38,400 nucleotides of DNA from a virus. The position numbers were made by a program, and so were the translations under genes. The DNA is taken from the UHGV virus genome UHGV-1783985; one strand, written 5' to 3'. Below the pieces are notes generated by a model, which did not search any database, had not been told where the DNA came from, and saw only the letters and a list, made by a program, of their open reading frames with translations. Positions 5,250-38,400 of this stretch are shown in pieces (the stretch's first letter is position 1; the number at the start of each line of letters is the position of its first letter).

Positions 5250-5725
5250 TACGACCTTCTGTATACGATCTGCGAAAAGCCAGGCTCTTCCTCGCTGGCT
5301 CGTTGGGTATAAGCTGTTTCAACAGGCACAAAGCCTAAGTTACGCATCATGCTTGCCGGGAAGAATGCATCAGCGTTTGGTACATCAACGCCGATGTGGG
5401 AGAGCCAAATCTCTTCAACATGCGGCATGAATAGCGAGTAAATTTGTTCCCCGCCAATCACCCACACAGGCTCTGGTAATCGCAACACATCATCCACACC
5501 AGCAGGGTAGAATCCATTTGGTACAAAGCCATGAGAGCGCGTCAAAACGAGATTATGACGCTCTGGAAGAGGGCGTTTGAGACTTTCCATCGTTTTACGT
5601 CCCATAACGACAGTGGCGTTTTTGGTGAGTCTCTTAAATAGCTTCAGATCGGTAGAGCAACGCCAGGGCAGTTCGTTCGCTATACCGATCTCATAATTAC
5701 GGCCAACAGCAGCTATCATCTTCAT
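5249..5725 (-). CDS. folA: Dihydrofolate reductase
   Basis: 158-aa ORF; MIAAVGRNYEIGIANELPW, VVMGRKTMESL, HNLVLTRS, VIGGEQIY match DHFR signature blocks; start overlaps upstream gene stop. Confidence 0.8.
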   Translation of the reverse strand: MKMIAAVGRNYEIGIANELPWRCSTDLKLFKRLTKNATVVMGRKTMESLKRPLPERHNLVLTRSHGFVPNGFYPAGVDDVLRLPEPVWVIGGEQIYSLFMPHVEEIWLSHIGVDVPNADAFFPASMMRNLGFVPVETAYTQRASEEEPGFSQIVYRRS

Positions 5726-6135
5726 TTGCCCACCTCATAGATGACCGGTCTATGATGAGAGTCAGCTAAAGCGGCACGGAGTCGAGGATCGTGCACCAGC
5801 GCAGCGATAAGCAGATCGCCTTTATGCTCCGCTAATGTGCGCTTAATATGCTTCTCATAACTGATGCCATTCGGTACGAGATGAAGCCAGTCGTAATCAA
5901 CACCAAAATCTTTCAGCCATCGTTTAGTGGGCGCTTCAAGAGTTTCAGAGCGGCTACTGATAAGCACCACTTCAGCCCCTGAGCGAGCAAAACCACGCAA
6001 CATACGGCTGGTGGGGAAAATGAGTTCATCACCGGCAATGAGCTGGCCTGCATCCGCGTCAGATACAGATTTACGATGGCTGGTATTTGCCAGCACACCT
6101 TCAATTTCGCATAAGACATACATACCTCTTGCCAT
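5722..6135 (-). CDS. Hypothetical protein
   Basis: ORF 5722..6183; start placed at ATG 6133-6135 (MARGMYVL) one nt after the ThyA stop; ATGA overlap with the DHFR start. Confidence 0.45.
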   Translation of the reverse strand: MARGMYVLCEIEGVLANTSHRKSVSDADAGQLIAGDELIFPTSRMLRGFARSGAEVVLISSRSETLEAPTKRWLKDFGVDYDWLHLVPNGISYEKHIKRTLAEHKGDLLIAALVHDPRLRAALADSHHRPVIYEVGK

Positions 6136-30300: not shown

Positions 30301-30845
30301 TGCGGATAAATCACACTATAGAAGTTGTCTTTTCCACCCGCTGTAATCAATGTGCTTATGATTTTTGCAAAATCGTTGCGTTGGAACACGCTACCGATGT
30401 CGGAAGTTAGCAGGATGATGTTGCCTTTGGCATATGTAGAAACCAACTGTTCGAGCGAGAGACGCGGTACAAAGTAGAACTGTTCTCGTGTGTTGGCCGC
30501 CGTCATTAGTTCGCAGATGTCTCGATATCCCTGCTCATTTTTAATTAGAGCGGTAAAGGAGTAGTTCCGCCCACGCTCTAATGATTCCATACATCCCATA
30601 GACTCTTTAGCAAGTTTAGCCCGGTGCTCGTATGTGGGATCATCAACAATGTTTAGTTTCACACCACAAATAACCGCCATGTCGTCACCAGCGGCACGTT
30701 GTAGTGGAATAACACTCGCAATATTCATGCTATCTGCCGAAATTACAGCGGTGTAGCCAGCTTCTCTGGCAATCTTCACCGCGTTTTCTGCTTTTAGAGC
30801 CGACTCCCCAAGAGAGAAGTCAGTTCGAACCATCAGAGCCTTCAT
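27327..30845 (-). CDS. dnaE: DNA polymerase III alpha-type replicative polymerase (DnaE family)
   Basis: 1172-aa ORF; size and overall layout match the DnaE family; the N-terminal PHP-like region (MVRTDFSLGESALKAENAVKIAREAGYTAVI) lacks the canonical His pair and may be degenerate. Confidence 0.8.
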   Translation of the reverse strand: MKALMVRTDFSLGESALKAENAVKIAREAGYTAVISADSMNIASVIPLQRAAGDDMAVICGVKLNIVDDPTYEHRAKLAKESMGCMESLERGRNYSFTALIKNEQGYRDICELMTAANTREQFYFVPRLSLEQLVSTYAKGNIILLTSDIGSVFQRNDFAKIISTLITAGGKDNFYSVIYPHPTPFYDQINVRAMKVASALKIEPVAFYPAYYESIDDADIKDIAHMVTNNIKIDQPHRLRIPHQRDNAVNGRRHLLEALKAFSVRMDVPVTAAMASTTQDTIIDACTWRWHELPPALPKMADDEPATLMKLAVAGLRKRLTTKEFGYTPPASENRVYVERLKYEMDTLTRLGFCGYFLMVRDLMNHSRETGIPVGPGRGSSAGSLVAWCIGITNVDPIRHGLLFERFINPERLDLPDADLDFSQARRHEVIEYLNERYGEDYVAGIPNFTYLGAASALRDTARIYGVESADMAVSKELKNVEDDSLPLEELREQLASLDKYATKYPDAFNAACKLQSLMRGFGRHAAGMIVAGVPLTERTPVERRGDARCIAFDKRYCEAMGLIKLDVLGLATLDLLDSAKRYIKENTGEDINLDAISLEDRKVLDGFAAGYTQGVFQLESGPMRKLLKDLGGGIEPMSFKTVVATTALFRPGPIQSGMLDDYVSVAKGFMTPESLHPVLDELTAETNGVILYQEQTMNATRLLAGFTMAEADGVRSAIGKKNMEKMKSMGEKFIVQAQAGWIDVELEDGTTQRIHRAEHFKCEDGTLKTVEEALEHGAKLPINAVRVTASHPGLSEMKAKEIWTAFEKNGAYQFNKSHSVAYSLISYQSMWLKTHYPAEFFAAALTILGEDKHQGLVKDALTYGIRVLPPDVNVSSNRIEIRTLEDGSQVLYAPFSAVKGCSENGCQAIMRAREKVGGKFESLAQFEEAVEKRSCNSRVRESLQKVGAFASIEPGSLPATDPERLRDQAELMGNLVIDAVKASRPFEMNPKRSAEINVLMTRMAAEMSLGDELIRPSIGIKPKIMIILDNANGNDARTGYFMENGYDDFKAKLLTAGDLRMGDIYVTGVCKKMKDKEKDYTKDEIGQFTDFMREEINLVRPTYVLTCGSRATALFNNKNKPSDLVGRKEYLPDLDVTVFYGFNPNILYFRPEEGERLEAILADVAETIKT

Positions 30846-33403: not shown

Positions 33404-35512
33404 TCACTTCAAAATGATACGAGATAGTTCAGTAACTACAGATGAACCAAGACTATCAACGCTCGTTACCAGGGCATGATTTGAGTAAAATCTCTCCGGT
33501 GCGTCAGTCATGATGCCAATTGCCATCAAATCAATGTCAGTCTGCGTTTCAATTTGCTTCGCAACCGAACGCAAATGAGCGTCAAACCCTCTCCCAACAG
33601 CCCACGGCGCGCCATCACTCAGAACAAGCATGATCTTCCTGTCCTCCATGCGACCGGAAAATAACGATGCAAGGCTGGCTATACTTTCACCATCCACGTT
33701 ATTAAGAAGTGGGAATGTGTAGCCTACGCACCCCATACGTGAGCGAACTTCGCGAGAATTTACCTTTTCATTCCAATTTTTGATGATAGGTAGCATTAAA
33801 GACTCAAAGCGAGAGAACTCATACTTGACAGCCTTAAGTTCTCCTGCCGCCATATGACTACCAAATGTAGTGAAGCCGGTGATAATGTTGGGAACATTTA
33901 TTCGATCAAGGGCATCGGCGATGGTATATGCACTTGCAAGAGCCAATTGTATCGTTATACCACACATTGAACCTGATAAATCAATCACTTGTTGAACACA
34001 GGCGTTAACGGCTTTAGATTCTTCTTTTTTACGAAACACGCGATCATCATTCATTGCTAATCTGTAGATACTAGAACCATGAATGCGCCCCCGACGCTGG
34101 CCCGGTATAAACTGAACTCTGTTTCTGCTTGCTATTGCTCGCTCCAGGTCTTTTGCCAGCGTCGACGAAACACCTGACGAAAGATGCTTTTCAATATATT
34201 TGTCGAAGAGCTGGTTGCCTTCAGGAACGATGCGATAGCGGCTGATTGGATATCCTCCTAAATCAATATCGGAGAATGTTTTAATAAGCCGTTTGATATG
34301 GGCTTCTGCCTGATCAATCGAGCCGATGAAGTCGTATGAGCGATTGTATGGCCTGTATTCGCTTTTCGAGCTTTCTGTTAACTCGCTTTTAATCGTTTCG
34401 GATATAGCATCTTCTGTCATGCCTCCGACTTCATCTTCTATGCTATCCAGCTCCTCTAAAGCCTCTTCCAGACTCATTTTTGACGGAGTTGGAATATCTG
34501 AAGAGCCGTCTTCTGTCGTTTTTCTTTTTTCGTGGTCAGCGGTTAATGATTCTGACGCCGCGTTATCAGAAGCATCAGAATCTGATACCTCTTTATCATT
34601 TTCTGTATCATCGAATATTGTTTCTGATGATTCAGAATTATCTGAATCATTACTGTCGTTATTATCATGTTTGTGCTTACTGTGTGATTCTGATTTGATA
34701 GATTTGTGATTATCTAACGATGAGGGTGTCTCATGATCTTCGTTATCTTCATTGTTTTCTCCAGAGGCATCCGTCTGGTCAGCGTCTGAAGGATCGGAAG
34801 TTTTTCCCGGAGCTGACTCCTTACCTTTGCTTTCGCTTTCAGTGTCTTTGAGGATCTTAGCTATGGTCGCAGCCACCTTTACACAATCCTCGGTGCAAGA
34901 CATGTTACGCACGGCCACATCGATACCATGTTCTTTTAATAATGAAATTGGTTTCTCAATGACAGGCCAGTATTCATCCATGAAATCTACGAACGGTGCT
35001 TGGCCATCCCAGGCTCTTACAACCGGACAGAGAAAGAAGTTTAGAAAAAGCGCGCGCTGATCTTTGCCACAATAAGCAATAGCCTCTGAAGCCTTTGGTT
35101 TAAAGACTTTTCCGATTATAAGGCGCTGAGTTGCCATCAGATTACGTCTCGTTCCGTTAAAGACCTGCCCCATTTTTCGCTCGATGAACACGTCTTCTAA
35201 GGCATTCCATAGCGACCAGGAAGGAACGCGTCCTTTTTCTCTCATTTTGTTGGACACACGAATATCGGTAAACAAAATGTGAGCAACCTCATGATCGAGA
35301 AATCCGCGCACAGCATTCATCAATGCCGGTGTTGCGTTATCCGGGATTGATGGGATGTTTACGAGAATTGGCTCTCCATCATCGTTATAGCGTACATAAG
35401 CGTCGTCCCCTCGTTCTGCAACAGGGATGTTTTTACCTGAAAGGAGAGCGACTACTCGTTTTACACTGTCACGGAAGTCCTGAACCTCTTTGATGGAACG
35501 TTTTTTAGACAT
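33404..35512 (-). CDS. vWA-domain protein (CobT-like partner of the AAA+ ATPase) with long acidic low-complexity insert
   Basis: 702 aa; C-terminal vWA-like block (VIDLSGSM, ITGFTTFG, VLSDGAPW); central 130 residues are S/D/E/N-rich (SDPSDADQTDASGENNEDNEDHET...). Confidence 0.65.
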   Translation of the reverse strand: MSKKRSIKEVQDFRDSVKRVVALLSGKNIPVAERGDDAYVRYNDDGEPILVNIPSIPDNATPALMNAVRGFLDHEVAHILFTDIRVSNKMREKGRVPSWSLWNALEDVFIERKMGQVFNGTRRNLMATQRLIIGKVFKPKASEAIAYCGKDQRALFLNFFLCPVVRAWDGQAPFVDFMDEYWPVIEKPISLLKEHGIDVAVRNMSCTEDCVKVAATIAKILKDTESESKGKESAPGKTSDPSDADQTDASGENNEDNEDHETPSSLDNHKSIKSESHSKHKHDNNDSNDSDNSESSETIFDDTENDKEVSDSDASDNAASESLTADHEKRKTTEDGSSDIPTPSKMSLEEALEELDSIEDEVGGMTEDAISETIKSELTESSKSEYRPYNRSYDFIGSIDQAEAHIKRLIKTFSDIDLGGYPISRYRIVPEGNQLFDKYIEKHLSSGVSSTLAKDLERAIASRNRVQFIPGQRRGRIHGSSIYRLAMNDDRVFRKKEESKAVNACVQQVIDLSGSMCGITIQLALASAYTIADALDRINVPNIITGFTTFGSHMAAGELKAVKYEFSRFESLMLPIIKNWNEKVNSREVRSRMGCVGYTFPLLNNVDGESIASLASLFSGRMEDRKIMLVLSDGAPWAVGRGFDAHLRSVAKQIETQTDIDLMAIGIMTDAPERFYSNHALVTSVDSLGSSVVTELSRIILK

Positions 35513-35610
35513 GGCTAATCCTTTGTTATGAAAACAAATTATTTACTAGTGTGTTTAATGTAGCACTGCGCGAACAGGGAACTAAGCCATTCGCGCAGGG
35601 AGAAGAGGGG

Positions 35611-35823
35611 TTAACAGATTCTGACGGCTAAAGACCCGGAGCCGGTATTGAGAAGCGTGAAGCGTTTGTTGTTAAGTTCGAATATAAAGCCAGTTGTGTC
35701 ATTCAAACCAACCTGAATCTGCTCATTCGGAAGATCGGTGAGGATGTCAGCTACACACTCATCAGCTAATTTCTGTACGTGTCCGGTCTCAAGAGCGATT
35801 AGGCTGGAAATAGTGGTTTTCAT
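35611..35823 (-). CDS. Hypothetical small protein
   Basis: 70-aa ORF. Confidence 0.4.
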   Translation of the reverse strand: MKTTISSLIALETGHVQKLADECVADILTDLPNEQIQVGLNDTTGFIFELNNKRFTLLNTGSGSLAVRIC

Positions 35824-36028
35824 TCAATCAATCCATTCTAACTTATACTATGGTAAGGAATACTACTAAAATTTGTATCAATACTGAATACATCTATATC
35901 AGATGCAAGTTAATTTTCTTACCTATTTTGGGCTAGTTCTTCTCCATGCATGGACCTTTGCTCGGTCTTACAAGTGCCTGCCGAAAAAATGATAATAGCT
36001 TTACAACCCTAACCTTTGATGTAATATC

Positions 36029-36042
36029 GGTAAGCACTTACC
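36029..36042. promoter_or_regulatory. Perfect palindrome GGTAAGCACTTACC, candidate operator upstream of the HTH gene
   Basis: 14-bp perfect inverted repeat 32 nt upstream of the HTH gene start; related half-sites GGTAAG / CTTACC recur twice more in the same divergent intergenic region. Confidence 0.45.
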
Positions 36043-36073
36043 AGAGAGAATTAAACGCGCAAAGGTTATAACG

Positions 36074-36460
36074 ATGTCTGAAAACAAAATTGAATTTATT
36101 GAAAGTCGCTATGCTGCTGTTATTGCAGGGCTGATTGAATCCTCATCTATGAGTCAGGCACAAATAGCCAGACTTATTGGTTATAAAAATGCCAACAACC
36201 TTTCTTTAATTAAAAGTGGCAAAATTCCTTTGCCTATCGATAAGGTTCGTCCGCTGGCGCTGGCACTGGATATTGAGCCAAGTCGCCTTATGATGATGGT
36301 TCTGGAAGAACGCCAACCTGAACTCGCAGCATTTTTATACAAAGAAGGCACCGCTCCTCTTAACGAGGACGAAAAACAGGTTCTTGCTGCATATAACGAG
36401 CGATTCGGTAAAGAGAAAGGCGCATCACAAAAGGTTGTTGAGGCCATAAAGTCTCTATGA
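36074..36460 (+). CDS. Helix-turn-helix transcriptional regulator (XRE/Cro-CI-like)
   Basis: 128 aa on the plus strand; HTH-like segment SQAQIARLIGYKNANNLSLIKSGK; convergent with and overlapping the integrase stop by 6 nt. Confidence 0.6.
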   Translation: MSENKIEFIESRYAAVIAGLIESSSMSQAQIARLIGYKNANNLSLIKSGKIPLPIDKVRPLALALDIEPSRLMMMVLEERQPELAAFLYKEGTAPLNEDEKQVLAAYNERFGKEKGASQKVVEAIKSL

Positions 36461-37558
36461 AAAATTTACACGAATAAGCTCTGTTGATAGACGATCTCCC
36501 TTGAATTTGTGGTCAATTTCGTCTAAATCCGGTTGCTCTACGATTGATGCGATGTACGTCGAGAAACTTTCTAAGGCGTCTCGCATCTCGTCCATATAAT
36601 CGTGTCGATCGTAGACCCGATCTATCCCCTCAAGACTGTGGTTCATGATTTTGCGTGATACCTCCTGGCTTATGCCTAATGCTGGGAAGTAACTACGCGC
36701 AGTACGGCGCAAATCTCGGGGTGTAAATGGCTCAAGCTCCATCAGTTCTGGTCGGTCCAGAATACGACGTAATGCCTGGGCTATTGCCACTTTAGACATA
36801 GGAAGGTCTTTCCCGATTTTTTTATTCGAAGGCACAAGCCACTGGCTGTCTTTGCCGTATTCGAACAATTCTTCAATGCATGTGCGCATTAATGTGCTTA
36901 AAGGCAGCGAATGCTCACGTGCTGACTTGTTTCTCTTGCCTTGATTCCAAACCCCACGCTTAAGATTGAACTCACTTTTTTTAGCCCGCAGAACTTCGTC
37001 AGGTCGTCTTGCCGATACAAGGCATAGCCTGGCCGCCCATTTTGTACCAGCGCACACATTGAAGTAGTCCCATATATTCCAGAACACCCATACCTCTGCG
37101 TCGGTCAGCTTCCGCTCGCGAGGCGTGGGCTTTGCGCCACCGGCAACTTTGTTCAGTGACATATCGTTTAACGGTGACACGTCGATCATCCCCTGGAAGG
37201 CGCACCAGCTGAGGAACTGCTTCATCAGAGAGAAAACGCGGCGGCCCATAACAATTTTGCCATCCAGTATTAGTGGGTTGACCAGTTGGTTCACCATGAA
37301 CCTATTAATATCACTTACTTTTACGTCGGCAATGTGCGGCAAAACATGTATCAAAATACAATGAACAGCGATCTCTGGCCGACGTCTTGTTATCAGCAGA
37401 GATAAGCGAGTGAATAACATGAATGCGTCCGAGAATCTCATGTCATTGCTGACCTGGGAGATCATAACGGCCTGCATTTGAGATGCTCTTTCGAGATACT
37501 CAATCGCCTCTTTTGAGGTGTTCTCCGCAGCGCGTGCTCTGTCAAAGCTATTTTTCAT
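36455..37558 (-). CDS. Tyrosine recombinase / phage-type integrase
   Basis: 367 aa; catalytic-domain-like blocks RRPDEVLRAKKSEF, FTPRDLRRTARSYF and C-terminal IDRVYDRHDY (candidate catalytic Tyr). Confidence 0.7.
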   Translation of the reverse strand: MKNSFDRARAAENTSKEAIEYLERASQMQAVMISQVSNDMRFSDAFMLFTRLSLLITRRRPEIAVHCILIHVLPHIADVKVSDINRFMVNQLVNPLILDGKIVMGRRVFSLMKQFLSWCAFQGMIDVSPLNDMSLNKVAGGAKPTPRERKLTDAEVWVFWNIWDYFNVCAGTKWAARLCLVSARRPDEVLRAKKSEFNLKRGVWNQGKRNKSAREHSLPLSTLMRTCIEELFEYGKDSQWLVPSNKKIGKDLPMSKVAIAQALRRILDRPELMELEPFTPRDLRRTARSYFPALGISQEVSRKIMNHSLEGIDRVYDRHDYMDEMRDALESFSTYIASIVEQPDLDEIDHKFKGDRLSTELIRVNFS

Positions 37559-37656
37559 ATGACAATCACCGAGTTACGCCGTTGCACTGTATAAGTAAAC
37601 AGTATATTAGGCATAGATTCTTATAGGATCAAGAGTAAAAGTAACTCATTTTCAGT

Positions 37657-37711
37657 AATGATTCCATACATAGTAGGTATGGAATCATTTTGACGTTGTT
37701 TTTTGAATTTT
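37657..37711 (+). terminator. Plus-strand intrinsic terminator-like hairpin
   Basis: 12-bp perfect stem AATGATTCCATA / TATGGAATCATT with 9-nt loop, followed by TTGACGTTGTTTTTTGAATTTT. Confidence 0.45.
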
Positions 37712-37735
37712 AAGGGAAACGGGAGTGAGTTTGGT

Positions 37736-37763
37736 GGGAATAAAAACGGCTCCTGTGAGCCGT
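37736..37763 (-). terminator. Intrinsic terminator downstream of the glutaredoxin gene
   Basis: Hairpin AACGGCTC-CTGT-GAGCCGTT followed on the minus strand by TTTTTATT, immediately after the glutaredoxin stop. Confidence 0.6.
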
Positions 37764-37768
37764 TAAAA

Positions 37769-38014
37769 TCAGAGGGTGCTGACGTATGCAGCCAGTTCTG
37801 TGTATCCGCCAATCGGCTGGCCGTCGATCAGTACCTGTGGGATAGTCTCTACCGGTTTACCAACAATTTCACTTAGTTTTTCCTTGTCGATACCGGCTGT
37901 GGTGATGTCGATGTACTCATAATCACCGCAGCCATGCCCCTTTAGTTGCTTTGCCAGCTCGACCGCACGTTTGCAGTAAGAGCAGTTATCTCGTCCGTAG
38001 ATAGTGATCGTCAT
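37769..38014 (-). CDS. Glutaredoxin-like protein (NrdH/NrdC-type redoxin)
   Basis: 81 aa; MTITIYGRDNCSYCKRA with CxxC active site and glutaredoxin-like C-terminal region VETIPQVLIDGQPIGGYTEL. Confidence 0.8.
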   Translation of the reverse strand: MTITIYGRDNCSYCKRAVELAKQLKGHGCGDYEYIDITTAGIDKEKLSEIVGKPVETIPQVLIDGQPIGGYTELAAYVSTL

Positions 38015-38085: not shown

Positions 38086-38230
38086 CGCTGACAGAAGAGT
38101 TGCTGGGATGTTAGTAAGCTATGGTAAGAACGTCTGCAGTAATTGTCTATCACAGCGTTGAGCGGTCTGGTTTATGTTAGCGGAGTCTTAATCTGGGTGA
38201 TTAAAAGGCCAAACCGCTCAACGCTGTGGC

Positions 38231-38317
38231 TGGCGGAGAGTAATGGAATCGAACCATCATCGCTTGCGCAATGGGACGGTTTTCAAGACCGTTTGAGCAC
38301 CATGCTCCCTACTCTCC
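38231..38317 (-). tRNA. tRNA-Ser (anticodon UGA), long variable arm
   Basis: Minus-strand sequence GGAGAGT...ACGGT-CTTGAAA-ACCGT...GGTTCGATTCC...ACTCTCCGCCA folds as a cloverleaf with 7-bp acceptor stem, anticodon loop CU-UGA-AA, long variable arm and encoded CCA. Confidence 0.8.
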
Positions 38318-38325
38318 AATTGTTG

Positions 38326-38400
38326 TGGTGCCGGTTAACGGACTTGAACCGCTGGCCATTCGCTTACAAAGCGACTGCTCTACCAACTGAGCTAAACCGG
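38326..38400 (-). tRNA. tRNA-Thr (anticodon UGU), 5' end just beyond window edge
   Basis: Minus-strand sequence CCGGTTTAGCTCAGTTGGTAGAGC...GTTCAAGTCC...AACCGGCACCA; D-loop and T-loop consensus, anticodon loop UU-UGU-AA; first acceptor nucleotide lies past position 38400. Confidence 0.75.

Follow-up and report, generated by a model that had tools for sequence, protein, structure and literature searches.

The window analysed here, 38,400 nucleotides of the virus genome UHGV-1783985, carries a block composed of a short open reading frame (orf70), a gene for an HTH protein and a tyrosine recombinase gene (int), together with candidate promoters, a predicted LexA box, a candidate recombination site and neighbouring glutaredoxin and tRNA genes. 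The features are as follows, with the strand given where one applies.

35611–35823, − strand: orf70, 70 aa, of unknown function (ORF; PHROG 2627, E 1e-39)
35824–36073: 250-bp control region between orf70 and the HTH gene; its right-hand ~70 bp alone is conserved across plasmid groups
35852–35857, + strand: distal GGTAAG half-site, kept in Cyrano and not conserved beyond; possibly chance
35918–35926, + strand: distal half-site CTTACCTAT, with GGTAAG on the − strand at 35918–35923; fits the right half of the 20-bp motif; not conserved
36000–36027, + strand: candidate HTH promoter, TTTACA-16 nt-TAATAT (promoter scan, 9/12 matches)
36026–36045: proximal operator-like palindrome, core GGTAAG-CA-CTTACC at 36029–36042; a member of the 20-bp motif family
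36074–36460, + strand: HTH protein, 128 aa (= CYRAN_45; ORF, PHROG match, predicted fold)
36455–37558, − strand: tyrosine recombinase, 367 aa (= CYRAN_44; ORF, Pfam Phage_integrase)
37585–37604: predicted LexA (SOS) box, TACTGTTTACTTATACAGTG on the int strand, CTGT-N8-ACAG core at 37587–37602
37604–37632, − strand: candidate int promoter, TTGATC-17 nt-TAATAT (read from sequence; conservation)
37657–37689: candidate recombination site, AATGATTCCATAC-ATAGTAG-GTATGGAATCATT (inverted-repeat search, conservation)
37690–37768: cargo hotspot, short here, with the glutaredoxin terminator inside it (37745–37764, − strand)
37769–38014, − strand: neighbouring glutaredoxin gene (Pfam Glutaredoxin, E 9e-11)
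38231–38400, − strand: tRNA-Ser and tRNA-Thr, element-borne and no attachment site of the host (Rfam; the same tRNAs are annotated in Cyrano)

The int and HTH genes lie tail to tail with a 6-bp overlap (36455–37558, −, against 36074–36460, +), in agreement with an earlier sequence-only reading of this DNA, which described them as convergent; the word 'divergent' in its title is wrong for this pair and applies instead to the HTH gene and orf70. The same reading placed the pair beside a tRNA cluster: the tRNA genes do begin at 38231, but the glutaredoxin gene stands between them and int. An Rfam search returned nothing beyond these two tRNAs. Domain searches found no recognizable domain in orf70, which is part of the module: it is annotated in the Cyrano, Salmonella and Y. 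pestis loci and is lost together with int and the HTH gene in phage SSU5.

Judged by its sequence, the element is a phage-plasmid of the SSU5/pSLy3 type, an already known kind, and is kept as a free plasmid. Its DNA is 95–96% identical to that of Escherichia phage Cyrano and of CMS-2020a, and synteny with 95–98% identity is shared with Cyrano, PhiR41_1 and ~190 E. coli plasmids of 100–125 kb. Gene content, gene order and plasmid state are those of the SSU5 supergroup (pSLy3 group), for which definitions have been published (PMC7969092; PMC11652158). In PLSDB, 540 plasmids match the element, and the int/HTH module occurs at 254 places in 252 of 5,426 complete E. coli genomes, all of them on plasmids and none chromosomal. 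The suggestion that the element is temperate or a phage-plasmid with a lysogeny-type module is thus borne out by the Cyrano and PLSDB matches and by 254/254 plasmid-borne E. coli copies. Cyrano itself is maintained as a plasmid of ~5.5 copies, produces virions and is induced 39-fold by ciprofloxacin (PMC9928086); its annotation labels the same two genes 'Integrase' (CYRAN_44) and 'putative repressor' (CYRAN_45). The gene families that persist across the SSU5 supergroup include tyrosine recombinases (PMC7969092). In phage SSU5 the whole block from orf70 through the HTH gene and int to the site is deleted, and SSU5 still grows. SSU5 has been proposed as a member of phage cocktails.

The recombinase and an adjacent lox-like site

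The assignment of the 367-aa protein as a tyrosine recombinase is confirmed by a Pfam Phage_integrase match (PF00589) above threshold (E 1e-9). An alignment had been named as the check on its catalytic Arg and Tyr residues, and in 39 aligned sequences R185, R284 and Y316 are invariant, with K211 and H307 nearly so; the complete catalytic set is R185, K211, R281, R284, H307 and Y316. At the position of the first catalytic His, Arg (R281) is found in 33/39 sequences and His in six outgroup integrases (HxLRRT). On this alignment, R281 is a family-wide variation and the nucleophile is not lost. The AF2 model (pLDDT 86, pTM 0.78) has a helical N-terminus and contains the core-binding and catalytic domain fold; its top Foldseek match is lambda Int 75–356 (TM 0.77, E 2e-6), followed by Tn1549 Int, XerH and IntI, whereas a PDB search by sequence gave no match. 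The arm-binding domain PF13356 was found in no close family member, but it is present in the nearest integrases of 24–32% identity, and the N-terminus here is ~60–100 residues shorter than in those arm-binding relatives. The protein may be pictured as a two-domain descendant of P4/lambda-type integrases after loss of the arm-binding domain. Relatives are encoded in 1,080 PLSDB records and reside on large, mostly non-phage replicons, several of which have records named as plasmids; those of Pantoea and Rahnella lie on 250–520-kb plasmids with no phage genes nearby. We found no published experiment on this recombinase or its site.

The candidate site, ~100 bp upstream of int, spans 33 bp and consists of perfect 13-bp inverted arms around an asymmetric 7-bp spacer. 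Exactly one copy stands beside int in 65/66 related loci, the 108-kb Cyrano genome holds a single full copy, and matches in the 5,426 E. coli genomes fall on plasmids only, with zero on the chromosome. Information content across 55 distinct Pantoea-type loci is 1.95 bits per position in the arms and 0.4–0.5 in the flanks. Arm positions 6 and 11 differ between the two clades, in both arms (GATTCCATAC versus GACTCCAGAC), and the variant-arm clade has recombinases of 45–53% identity on Pantoea, Rahnella and Erwinia replicons. The spacer sequence differs among plasmid groups and occurs in both orientations relative to int; a simple site that lacks flanking accessory sites would tolerate such flips, and we saw no evidence of arm sites around the 33 bp. 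A full-text literature search with the arm sequences and the palindromes described below returned unrelated primers or nothing.

By analogy, Int and the site most likely form a Cre/loxP-like module for multimer resolution and not for chromosomal insertion. Resolution of replication multimers had been offered earlier as an alternative role, and it is now favoured by the adjacent lox-like site, the missing arm-binding domain and the large replicons of the relatives. The arms would bind two Int monomers, with strand exchange within the asymmetric spacer; acting on two direct copies of the site in a plasmid dimer, Int would then return monomers, as Cre/loxP does in P1. It may also circularize or recombine incoming genomes. 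This putative recombination activity is drawn from the anatomy of the site and from the analogy.

The likeness to Cre/loxP is that of a phage-plasmid tyrosine recombinase of two-domain architecture, devoid of an arm-binding domain and encoded beside a single site with 13-bp arms and an asymmetric spacer. Cre serves in plasmid multimer resolution (PMC7969092). Nevertheless, there are clear differences: no sequence similarity to Cre was detected, the fold match is weak (E 0.02–0.1, TM 0.4–0.5) and ranks behind lambda Int, Tn1549 Int and XerH, the spacer has 7 bp where that of loxP has 8, the first catalytic His is an Arg, and the promoter carries a predicted LexA box. A 7-bp spacer is the overlap length of lambda. 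The P4/lambda-type integrases are the nearest relatives by sequence and share the ...DLRRT... and ...YDRHDY motifs as well as the core-binding and catalytic fold, but the system here differs from them in having no PF13356, perfectly symmetric arms, no chromosomal target or integrated copies found in E. coli and no annotated excisionase. XerH/difH, XerA and XerS resemble it in their inverted arms of 11–13 bp, spacers of 6–8 bp, one site per replicon and the dimer resolution that is proposed here, and XerH and XerA are among the Foldseek matches. Comparable plasmid resolution systems are ResD/rfsF of F and Xer/cer; unlike Xer and ResD, the recombinase here is encoded by the element, is not linked to FtsK, has no recognized accessory sequences and belongs to a different sequence family.

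A true integrase, inserting the element into the host chromosome at, for example, a tRNA gene, would fit the P4-type ancestry, the NCBI name 'site-specific integrase', a few carrying contigs of 0.2–0.9 Mb and a survey's mention of seven rare chromosomal regions resembling phage-plasmids, although the same survey ascribes these to recombination not directed by integrases (PMC12977533). However, 0/254 E. coli module copies are chromosomal and the site has no chromosomal match, the protein lacks an arm-binding domain, no excisionase is annotated nearby in six related records, and the spacer flips relative to its flanks, a change incompatible with an attP that has arm sites. The sequence-only reading had pointed to integration next to a tRNA and had held that a lack of integrated copies in host genomes would speak against it; since that is the situation in the 5,426 E. 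coli genomes, and the tRNAs are borne by the element itself, the integrative reading fails and we consider it very improbable. A different role is suggested by the cargo at the outer edge of the site, which is CYRAN_43 in Cyrano, a gadW-like gene with an 826-aa protein in PhiR41_1, the caf1 capsule operon in Y. pestis pMT and other ORFs in Salmonella and Citrobacter. If the site were mainly a point of gene exchange, at which Int recombines co-resident phage-plasmids or captures circular DNA that has a compatible site, this would explain why variable cargo always starts there. Homology between plasmid groups ends at 37688–37690, each lineage has its own unrelated cargo beyond that point (in Y. 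pestis, the caf1 operon), and spacers are group-specific. Yet each locus, like the Cyrano genome, has a single full site and no second one bounding the cargo, ~25 bp past the site (ATTCAAAAAA) are still common to several lineages, and intergenic spots after terminators are common insertion points for morons without any recombinase; we regard gene exchange as a decidedly improbable main function. Multimer resolution, the preferred role, has difficulties of its own. LexA repression would be unusual for a resolvase, for which basal expression is required, the first catalytic His is replaced by Arg family-wide, and the AT-rich site precedes a T-rich stretch on the + strand, so that it could double as a terminator.

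The HTH protein, its promoter palindrome and a dispersed 20-bp motif

The sequence-only reading recognized an XRE-like HTH gene, and the 128-aa product does match a PHROG regulator (3.8e-11) and has an XRE/C-protein-like predicted fold, with the Pfam HTH match staying below threshold. It consists of an XRE-type N-terminal domain and a helical tail of ~50 aa; an S24 peptidase domain was found neither by Pfam, PHROG and NCBIfam nor in the model. Nearly all of its 55 homologues with long assemblies lie on ~100–116-kb contigs of these phage-plasmids, and the recognition-helix segment NNLSLIKSGK is nearly invariant among the homologues. In RNA-seq of lysogens with silent lytic genes, the HTH gene stands ~10-fold over background.

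The palindrome at 36029–36042, previously described as a perfect 14-bp palindrome, is present but imperfect, because GGTAAG-CA-CTTACC has 6-bp arms and the central CA is not self-complementary; in the Klebsiella homologue the palindrome is GGTAAGTACTTACC and perfect. The two further half-site copies (35852–35857 and 35918–35923) exist as reported but are not conserved: Cyrano keeps both, PhiR41_1 (HTH protein 95% identical) has mutated versions, and the Salmonella, Yersinia and Klebsiella loci have neither. The window contains 21 GGTAAG hexamers, where shuffled sequence gives 10.7 ± 3.2, and 4/21 fall within the 250-bp spacer; by arithmetic a single 6-2-6 inverted repeat in 250 bp has a chance of ~0.06 and is not rare. 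It is conservation that makes the proximal palindrome credible. The −35, the −10 and the palindrome form a block that Cyrano, PhiR41_1, Salmonella, Y. pestis pMT and Klebsiella all retain, in a spacer that otherwise diverges; both promoter hexamers are conserved in the Salmonella, Yersinia and Klebsiella loci, and the palindrome takes the form GGTAAG/AGTAAG-NN-CTTACC in the five other aligned loci. It directly follows the −10, at about the predicted transcription start (+1).

This palindrome is also the core of a 20-bp palindrome, ATAgGTAAGTACTTACtTAT, which has 25 matches in Cyrano against ~2.5 in shuffles, nearly all of them intergenic. The earlier description 'operator-like palindromes' thus holds for the proximal, conserved copy; it does not hold for the distal ones, and the sequence is a genome-wide motif and not a private operator. 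We infer that the HTH protein is a lysogeny repressor, an XRE-type dimer without a self-cleavage domain, which would bind GGTAAG-N2-CTTACC at its own promoter start (autoregulation) and probably also the ~25 related 20-bp palindromes near lytic genes. Recognition helix and motif core are both essentially invariant, which leaves no variants of protein and operator to compare for covariation. Compared with lambda CI/Cro, there is a divergent arrangement with orf70, one conserved palindrome and no consensus leftward promoter; lambda CI has the S24 self-cleavage domain that is missing here. Structural superposition matches the predicted HTH domain to C.BclI, C.AhdI and C.Esp1396I (TM 0.7–0.8, with weak E values of 0.008–0.09). 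Restriction-modification C proteins bind palindromic boxes at their own promoters, as proposed here, but the HTH protein has the additional ~50-aa helical C-terminal tail and is essentially confined to these phage-plasmids. The P1 C1 repressor and RK2 KorB/KorA have many operator copies scattered through intergenic plasmid or phage DNA; the motif resembles these in its pattern of scatter, and no homology to C1 or KorB was seen.

The palindromes may not be operators of the HTH protein at all, and ATAgGTAAGTACTTACtTAT could instead be bound by another factor, ParB-like in the manner of KorB or an activator, or could act in RNA, in which case the copy at the HTH promoter would merely place the HTH gene under that factor's control. 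The ~25 copies extend over structural, replication and partition regions, one of them just upstream of parB; copies are kept in SSU5, which has no HTH gene; several are flanked by a stop codon and a GC hairpin, with no obvious promoter; and the HTH-promoter copy is without the outer ATA/TAT of the consensus. On the other hand, conservation of the core is highest in the copy at the start site of the HTH promoter, the classical place for autoregulation, and the HTH protein is restricted to these phage-plasmids (55 homologues). The RNA version is weak, with 48/207 stem positions mismatched and G:U pairs numbering 22 versus 19 without strand bias, and we rejected an RNA hairpin or terminator as the main reading of the motif on these grounds. 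The HTH protein cannot be an essential activator, as SSU5 grows without the gene; as an activator acting through the motif it was likewise rejected, because lysogens express it while their lytic genes are silent. A promoter-element reading, with the palindrome near −20 and a TATnAT-like −10, loses weight in view of the copies between stop codon and GC hairpin and of another that lies 12 nt away from a start codon. Overall, binding by another factor is a possibility that we take seriously but hold to be on the unlikely side.

A predicted LexA box at the int promoter and proposed SOS control

The exact sequence CTGT-N8-ACAG occurs once in the window, at 37587–37602, within a predicted LexA box that matches 16/20 positions of the 20-bp consensus and begins directly after the −10 of the int promoter. 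Versions with CTGT and ACAG intact and a variable centre recur in Cyrano, PhiR41_1, Salmonella, Yersinia, Kluyvera and two Klebsiella groups; Pantoea-type loci have no such box. In the 108-kb Cyrano genome it is one of only two strong boxes. The int promoter scores 8/12 to consensus, under the scan threshold, and its hexamers and spacing are conserved in Salmonella, Yersinia and Klebsiella. The predicted box and promoter are thus supported by sequence and conservation, from which LexA binding may be inferred: host LexA would occlude the int promoter, so that int is low in the resting plasmid and rises after DNA damage. In RNA-seq of LF82, int is up by 4.2 log2 in macrophages (6 h) versus medium, and the other gene with a LexA box, CYRAN_98, by 3.1 log2; the source paper calls the macrophage condition SOS-inducing. 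These public data are consistent with LexA control of int, although hicAB and CYRAN_60, without LexA boxes, also rise in macrophages, so that the rise by itself does not single out LexA. In the literature on SSU5 with LexA, and on pHCM2/pMT1 with integrase, we came across no description of these elements. N15 antC, GIL01 LexA and coliphage 186 Tum are alike in that host LexA, and not self-cleavage of a repressor, links damage to a phage promoter, and the SOS-linked switches of N15 and GIL01 are cited in PMC11652158. Here, in contrast, the gene with the box encodes a recombinase and runs tail to tail into the repressor gene, and no anti-repressor was recognized.

An extension that is compatible with the main explanation is SOS read-through. 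Without LexA, the int transcript would cross the HTH gene in antisense and enter orf70; convergent transcription or antisense RNA would lower the repressor, and orf70, a possible anti-repressor or Cro-like protein, would be made, which would explain SOS induction of a repressor without a cleavage domain. The genes int, orf70, cobT, cobS and dnaE all lie on the − strand, and the HTH gene is the sole + strand gene, tail to tail with int. Loci of the SSU5 type that were examined have both the tail-to-tail overlap and the LexA box, except that one of them, L011, shows no exact box; Pantoea-type relatives, which have no HTH gene, have neither. Cyrano has only its two strong boxes, yet shows 39-fold ciprofloxacin induction. 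FPKM values of int and orf70 are nearly equal over five LF82 RNA-seq conditions (r = 0.975), a correlation that comes from five conditions only and from counts of unstated strandedness; in macrophages, int and orf70 reach log2 ~10.3–10.8 and cobT 5.9. The promoter scan found no consensus promoter for orf70. No convincing terminator emerged when the strand downstream of int was folded, and the scan gave only a weak terminator-like hairpin within the HTH gene (36234–36218, − strand), which counts against read-through. Furthermore, macrophages with high int and orf70 yield no virions, so that the transcript alone is not the lytic trigger, and the second LexA box, before an S24-peptidase gene, could be the real SOS input. 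We hold read-through to be rather unlikely. The wider proposal, in which read-through by convergent transcription, and not repressor cleavage, flips a switch whose small XRE repressor silences the entire lytic genome through ~25 scattered palindromes, while Int and its site, with the two natural specificities GATTCCATAC and GACTCCAGAC, make up a new lox-like pair of integrase descent, is unlikely.

Taken together, we have moderate confidence in a phage-plasmid kept as a plasmid, in which Int would resolve multimers at the 33-bp site, LexA would occlude the int promoter and the HTH protein would act as lysogeny repressor. In the literature, we found no description of how SSU5-type elements stay monomeric, choose lysogeny or sense DNA damage. 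New relative to the sequence-only reading are the recombination site, the SOS box and the extent of the palindrome family. The database label 'integrase' is corrected, which matters for tools that call integrative prophages by their integrases, and the two natural recombinase/site specificities are possible orthogonal lox-like tools. SSU5-type phage-plasmids are common in E. coli, Klebsiella, Salmonella, Enterobacter and Y. pestis and carry resistance genes (PMC9600943), and virulence cargo, the caf1 F1-capsule operon, adjoins the site in the Y. pestis pMT record. For these elements, the locus supplies three concrete candidate sequence elements: a recombinase target, a LexA box and an operator family.

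The replicon and its gene order

Among phage-plasmids of the SSU5 supergroup, whose persistent genes include tyrosine recombinases (PMC7969092), the region falls in the pSLy3 group. Its DNA shows 95–96% identity with Escherichia phage Cyrano (pLF82) and with CMS-2020a, and 94% with PhiR41_1. Cyrano is a virion-producing plasmid of ~5.5 copies that ciprofloxacin induces 39-fold (PMC9928086), and its annotation already labels the two genes of interest 'Integrase' (CYRAN_44, here int) and 'putative repressor' (CYRAN_45, here the HTH gene). The module noticed in the sequence-only reading is real, and that finding is itself ordinary, since databases already contain the element and its two genes. 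The layout is as follows.

Features of the region (window coordinates)
33404-35512, - strand, cobT-like gene
35611-35823, - strand, orf70, a 70-aa open reading frame, followed by a 250 bp spacer to the HTH gene
36000-36027, candidate HTH promoter, TTTACA-16-TAATAT
36029-36042, proximal palindrome GGTAAG-CA-CTTACC, directly behind the -10 of the HTH promoter
36074-36460, + strand, HTH gene, 128 aa
36455-37558, - strand, tyrosine recombinase gene int, 367 aa, followed by a 210 bp spacer to the glutaredoxin gene
37587-37602, LexA box CTGT-N8-ACAG, the sole one in the window
37657-37689, candidate recombination site AATGATTCCATAC-ATAGTAG-GTATGGAATCATT, with perfect 13-bp inverted arms and an asymmetric 7-bp spacer
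37769-38014, - strand, glutaredoxin gene
from 38231, - strand, tRNA-Ser and tRNA-Thr
1141, 2181, 7256, 11968, 16652, 20159, 22111, 26735 and 36026, copies of a 20-bp motif, each 20 bp

The HTH gene had been called both divergent and convergent; it is convergent with int, overlapping it tail to tail by 6 bp, and divergent from orf70. Genes int, orf70, cobT, cobS and dnaE all lie on the - strand, with the repressor gene antisense among them. On the - strand, tRNA-Ser is followed immediately at its 3' end by a 20-nt inverted repeat (38151-38228; 95% complementary, 38-nt loop), perhaps a hairpin for processing or termination.

PLSDB returned 540 matching plasmids, mainly non-mobilizable E. coli and Klebsiella replicons; the full-length E. 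coli plasmids among the matches listed measure ~100-126 kb. A search for the 1.9-kb module in 5,426 complete E. coli genomes found it at 254 places in 252 genomes, every one plasmid-borne, with no chromosomal copy. Integration beside a tRNA, as had been proposed, is unsupported: no copy in these genomes is integrated, and the tRNAs are a component of the element, not a site where it attaches to the host. Some E. coli plasmids that carry the module have two to three times the normal length (NZ_CP146657, 198 kb; NZ_AP027577, 214 kb; NZ_CP139126, 218 kb; NZ_CP100967, 324 kb) and may have formed by cointegration of the phage-plasmid with another plasmid.

The recombinase and its candidate site

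Loss of the catalytic Arg and Tyr residues would have spoken against the recombinase, but R185, R284, R285 and Y316 show no variation across a 39-sequence alignment, and K211, H216 and H307 almost none. The first catalytic His position is Arg (R281) family-wide, aligned with the His of H-D-L-R-R-T in outgroup integrases. An AlphaFold model (pLDDT 86) best matches lambda Int 75-356 (TM 0.77) and also Tn1549 Int, XerH, IntI and XerA, whereas Cre is a weaker structural match. The arm-binding domain PF13356 is carried by the nearest relatives outside the family (24-32% identity) and is absent from every family member; the N-terminus is short and helical in the model. The family comprises two clades. 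Members of the first are at least 79% identical (82-87% in the aligned Salmonella, Yersinia and Klebsiella loci) and reside on SSU5-type phage-plasmids of Escherichia, Salmonella, Yersinia pestis (pMT1), Citrobacter, Enterobacter, Kluyvera and Klebsiella, together with a 56-61% group. The second, 45-53% identical, is found on large replicons of Pantoea, Rahnella, Erwinia, Ewingella, Xenorhabdus and others, several of them named plasmids of 250-520 kb, in which the neighbours of int are siderophore or metabolic genes, not phage genes.

The candidate site, which the sequence-only reading lacked, lies ~100 bp upstream of the int start. Of 66 related loci, 65 have the same architecture 80-280 bp upstream of int, in exactly one copy each; the 66th is a gene fragment. 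Conservation over 55 distinct Pantoea-type loci amounts to 1.95 bits per position in the arms, against 0.4-0.5 in the flanks. The clades differ at two inner positions, altered in both arms (GATTCCATAC/GTATGGAATC versus GACTCCAGAC/GTCTGGAGTC); such change in step with the protein clade would be expected of a recombinase-binding element. Spacers differ by group: CTACTAT in E. coli pSLy3, CTATTAA in SSU5/pHCM2/pMT1 types, CTACCAA in Klebsiella pKpn types, TCTATAG in another Klebsiella group and TTAATAG in most Pantoea types. Both spacer orientations relative to int occur (loci L008-L067 included), and the window (37670-37676) and the 94%-identical PhiR41_1 have their spacers in opposite orientations. 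Since site-specific recombination is unable to invert a spacer against its adjoining flank, the flips must arise otherwise, possibly by template switching within the palindrome; their persistence suggests that the site does not need oriented accessory sequences.

The full site is present once in the 108 kb of Cyrano and, among the E. coli genomes, in the 252 plasmid-bearing genomes with the module and in no others. Additional exact copies of the 13-nt arm AATGATTCCATAC lie at 30580-30592 (+) in the window, within a DNA polymerase III alpha-like gene, and in Cyrano (L069) at 37801 and 38813, at the starts of small ORFs beginning MIPYI; the chance expectation is ~0.003 per 13-mer in 108 kb.

Homology with more distant relatives ends at the outer edge of the site, at 37688-37690 (query 1865-1867 and 2189). 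The genes beyond vary by lineage: Cyrano has CYRAN_43, Y. pestis the caf1 capsule operon, and further lineages other genes. The site therefore borders a cargo hotspot. In the Y. pestis pMT locus (L004, 1-2400), the F1 capsule genes caf1A and caf1 stand immediately past the site, in the hotspot.

Owing to the anatomy of the site, the missing arm domain and the lack of integrated copies, the best reading of recombinase and site is a simple recombination module like Cre/loxP. Its task is most likely multimer resolution in a multicopy plasmid prophage, so that the phage-plasmid and multimer-resolution alternative of the sequence-only reading is the one supported.

The candidate int promoter and the int transcripts

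On the int strand the order is TTGATC, 17 nt, TAATAT, A, CTGTTTACTTATACAG, a GGTGA ribosome site and ATG, the LexA box beginning directly after the -10. This candidate promoter scores 8/12 to consensus, under the cutoff of the scan tool. Hexamers, spacing and the CTGT/ACAG ends are kept in Cyrano, PhiR41_1, Salmonella, Y. pestis, Kluyvera and two Klebsiella groups, with varying box centres; the Pantoea-type loci have no LexA box. The sole other strong box in the Cyrano genome, near-consensus TACTGTATGTGTATACAGTA (Cyrano 89275-89294, L070 39275, outside the window), precedes by 36 bp the gene CYRAN_98, which encodes a 129-aa S24 peptidase (UmuD-like). In Klebsiella pDD521.1 (L005, ~563-2450), a sense-oriented group II intron with ltrA separates the LexA box/promoter from the int start codon, and would thus lie within an SOS-controlled 5' leader.

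In LF82 RNA-seq from dataset GSE154648, int expression (log2) is 5.6 in LB, 6.1 in medium at 6 h and 10.3 in macrophages at 6 h, a condition that the authors of those data call SOS-inducing. Relative to medium, macrophages also raise the S24 gene (3.1 log2), orf70 (4.7), the HTH gene (2.4) and cobT and cobS (1.8), with dnaE unchanged. The rise of int fits LexA control without being specific to it, because hicAB and others are also up.

SOS-released int transcripts might read antisense across the repressor gene into orf70, although we consider this unlikely. The phage-plasmid groups examined combine convergent overlap with a LexA box, the FPKM values of int and orf70 are nearly equal in all five conditions (r = 0.975), and cobT, the next gene, is 30-fold lower. 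However, the correlation covers only five RNA-seq conditions with counts of unstated strandedness, and in macrophages int and orf70 are induced, yet virions are not made. The orf70-cobT gap holds a GC-rich hairpin, CTGCGCGAA...TTCGCGCAG (35565-35600), which may terminate the orf70 transcript, since expression falls ~30-fold across it.

The putative repressor, its operator-like palindrome and a dispersed motif

A search of 5.8 billion sequences gave 55 homologues of the HTH protein, and those with long assemblies are nearly all on ~100-116-kb contigs. Residues ~1-75 are modelled as an XRE/controller-protein HTH domain matching C.BclI and C.AhdI (TM 0.7-0.8, E ~0.01), followed by a predicted helical tail; neither domain searches nor the model revealed a peptidase domain. 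The recognition-helix segment NNLSLIKSGK is nearly invariant. Promoter and palindrome are kept as a block (AGTAAGCACTTACC in Salmonella and Yersinia, GGTAAGTACTTACC in Klebsiella), the remaining spacer being unalignable, a pattern that fits negative autoregulation by the HTH protein. The two further half-site copies of the sequence-only reading are unconserved even in PhiR41_1.

A 20-bp motif, ATAgGTAAGTACTTACtTAT, unexpectedly proved to have the palindrome as its core. In Cyrano it matches 25 times at up to five mismatches (~2.5 in shuffles) and 17 at up to four (0.2 in shuffles); ~23 of the 25 are intergenic, between same-strand genes of the structural, lysis, replication and partition regions. 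Copies often lie just past a stop codon, sometimes followed by a GC hairpin. Deviations from consensus neither preserve pairing nor favour one strand, and we therefore read the motif as a protein-binding DNA site. The HTH protein is the leading candidate for its binder, though a ParB/KorB-like protein or another factor may fill this role.

Phage SSU5 (L073, JQ965645) has just 165 bp between tRNA-Asn and cobT (5598-5761) and lacks tRNA-Thr/Ser, the glutaredoxin gene, the site, int, the HTH gene, orf70 and the LexA box; motif copies are kept despite the missing block. The lysogeny/maintenance block seems to have been deleted naturally, which fits its candidacy for phage cocktails (PMC7969092). 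Since SSU5 lacks the HTH gene, an essential activator role for the HTH protein is ruled out.

If the HTH protein binds the motif, it would be a scattered-operator repressor. The lox-like site, the putative LexA-controlled promoter and the motif family appear to be undescribed in the literature searched, and all three are directly testable.
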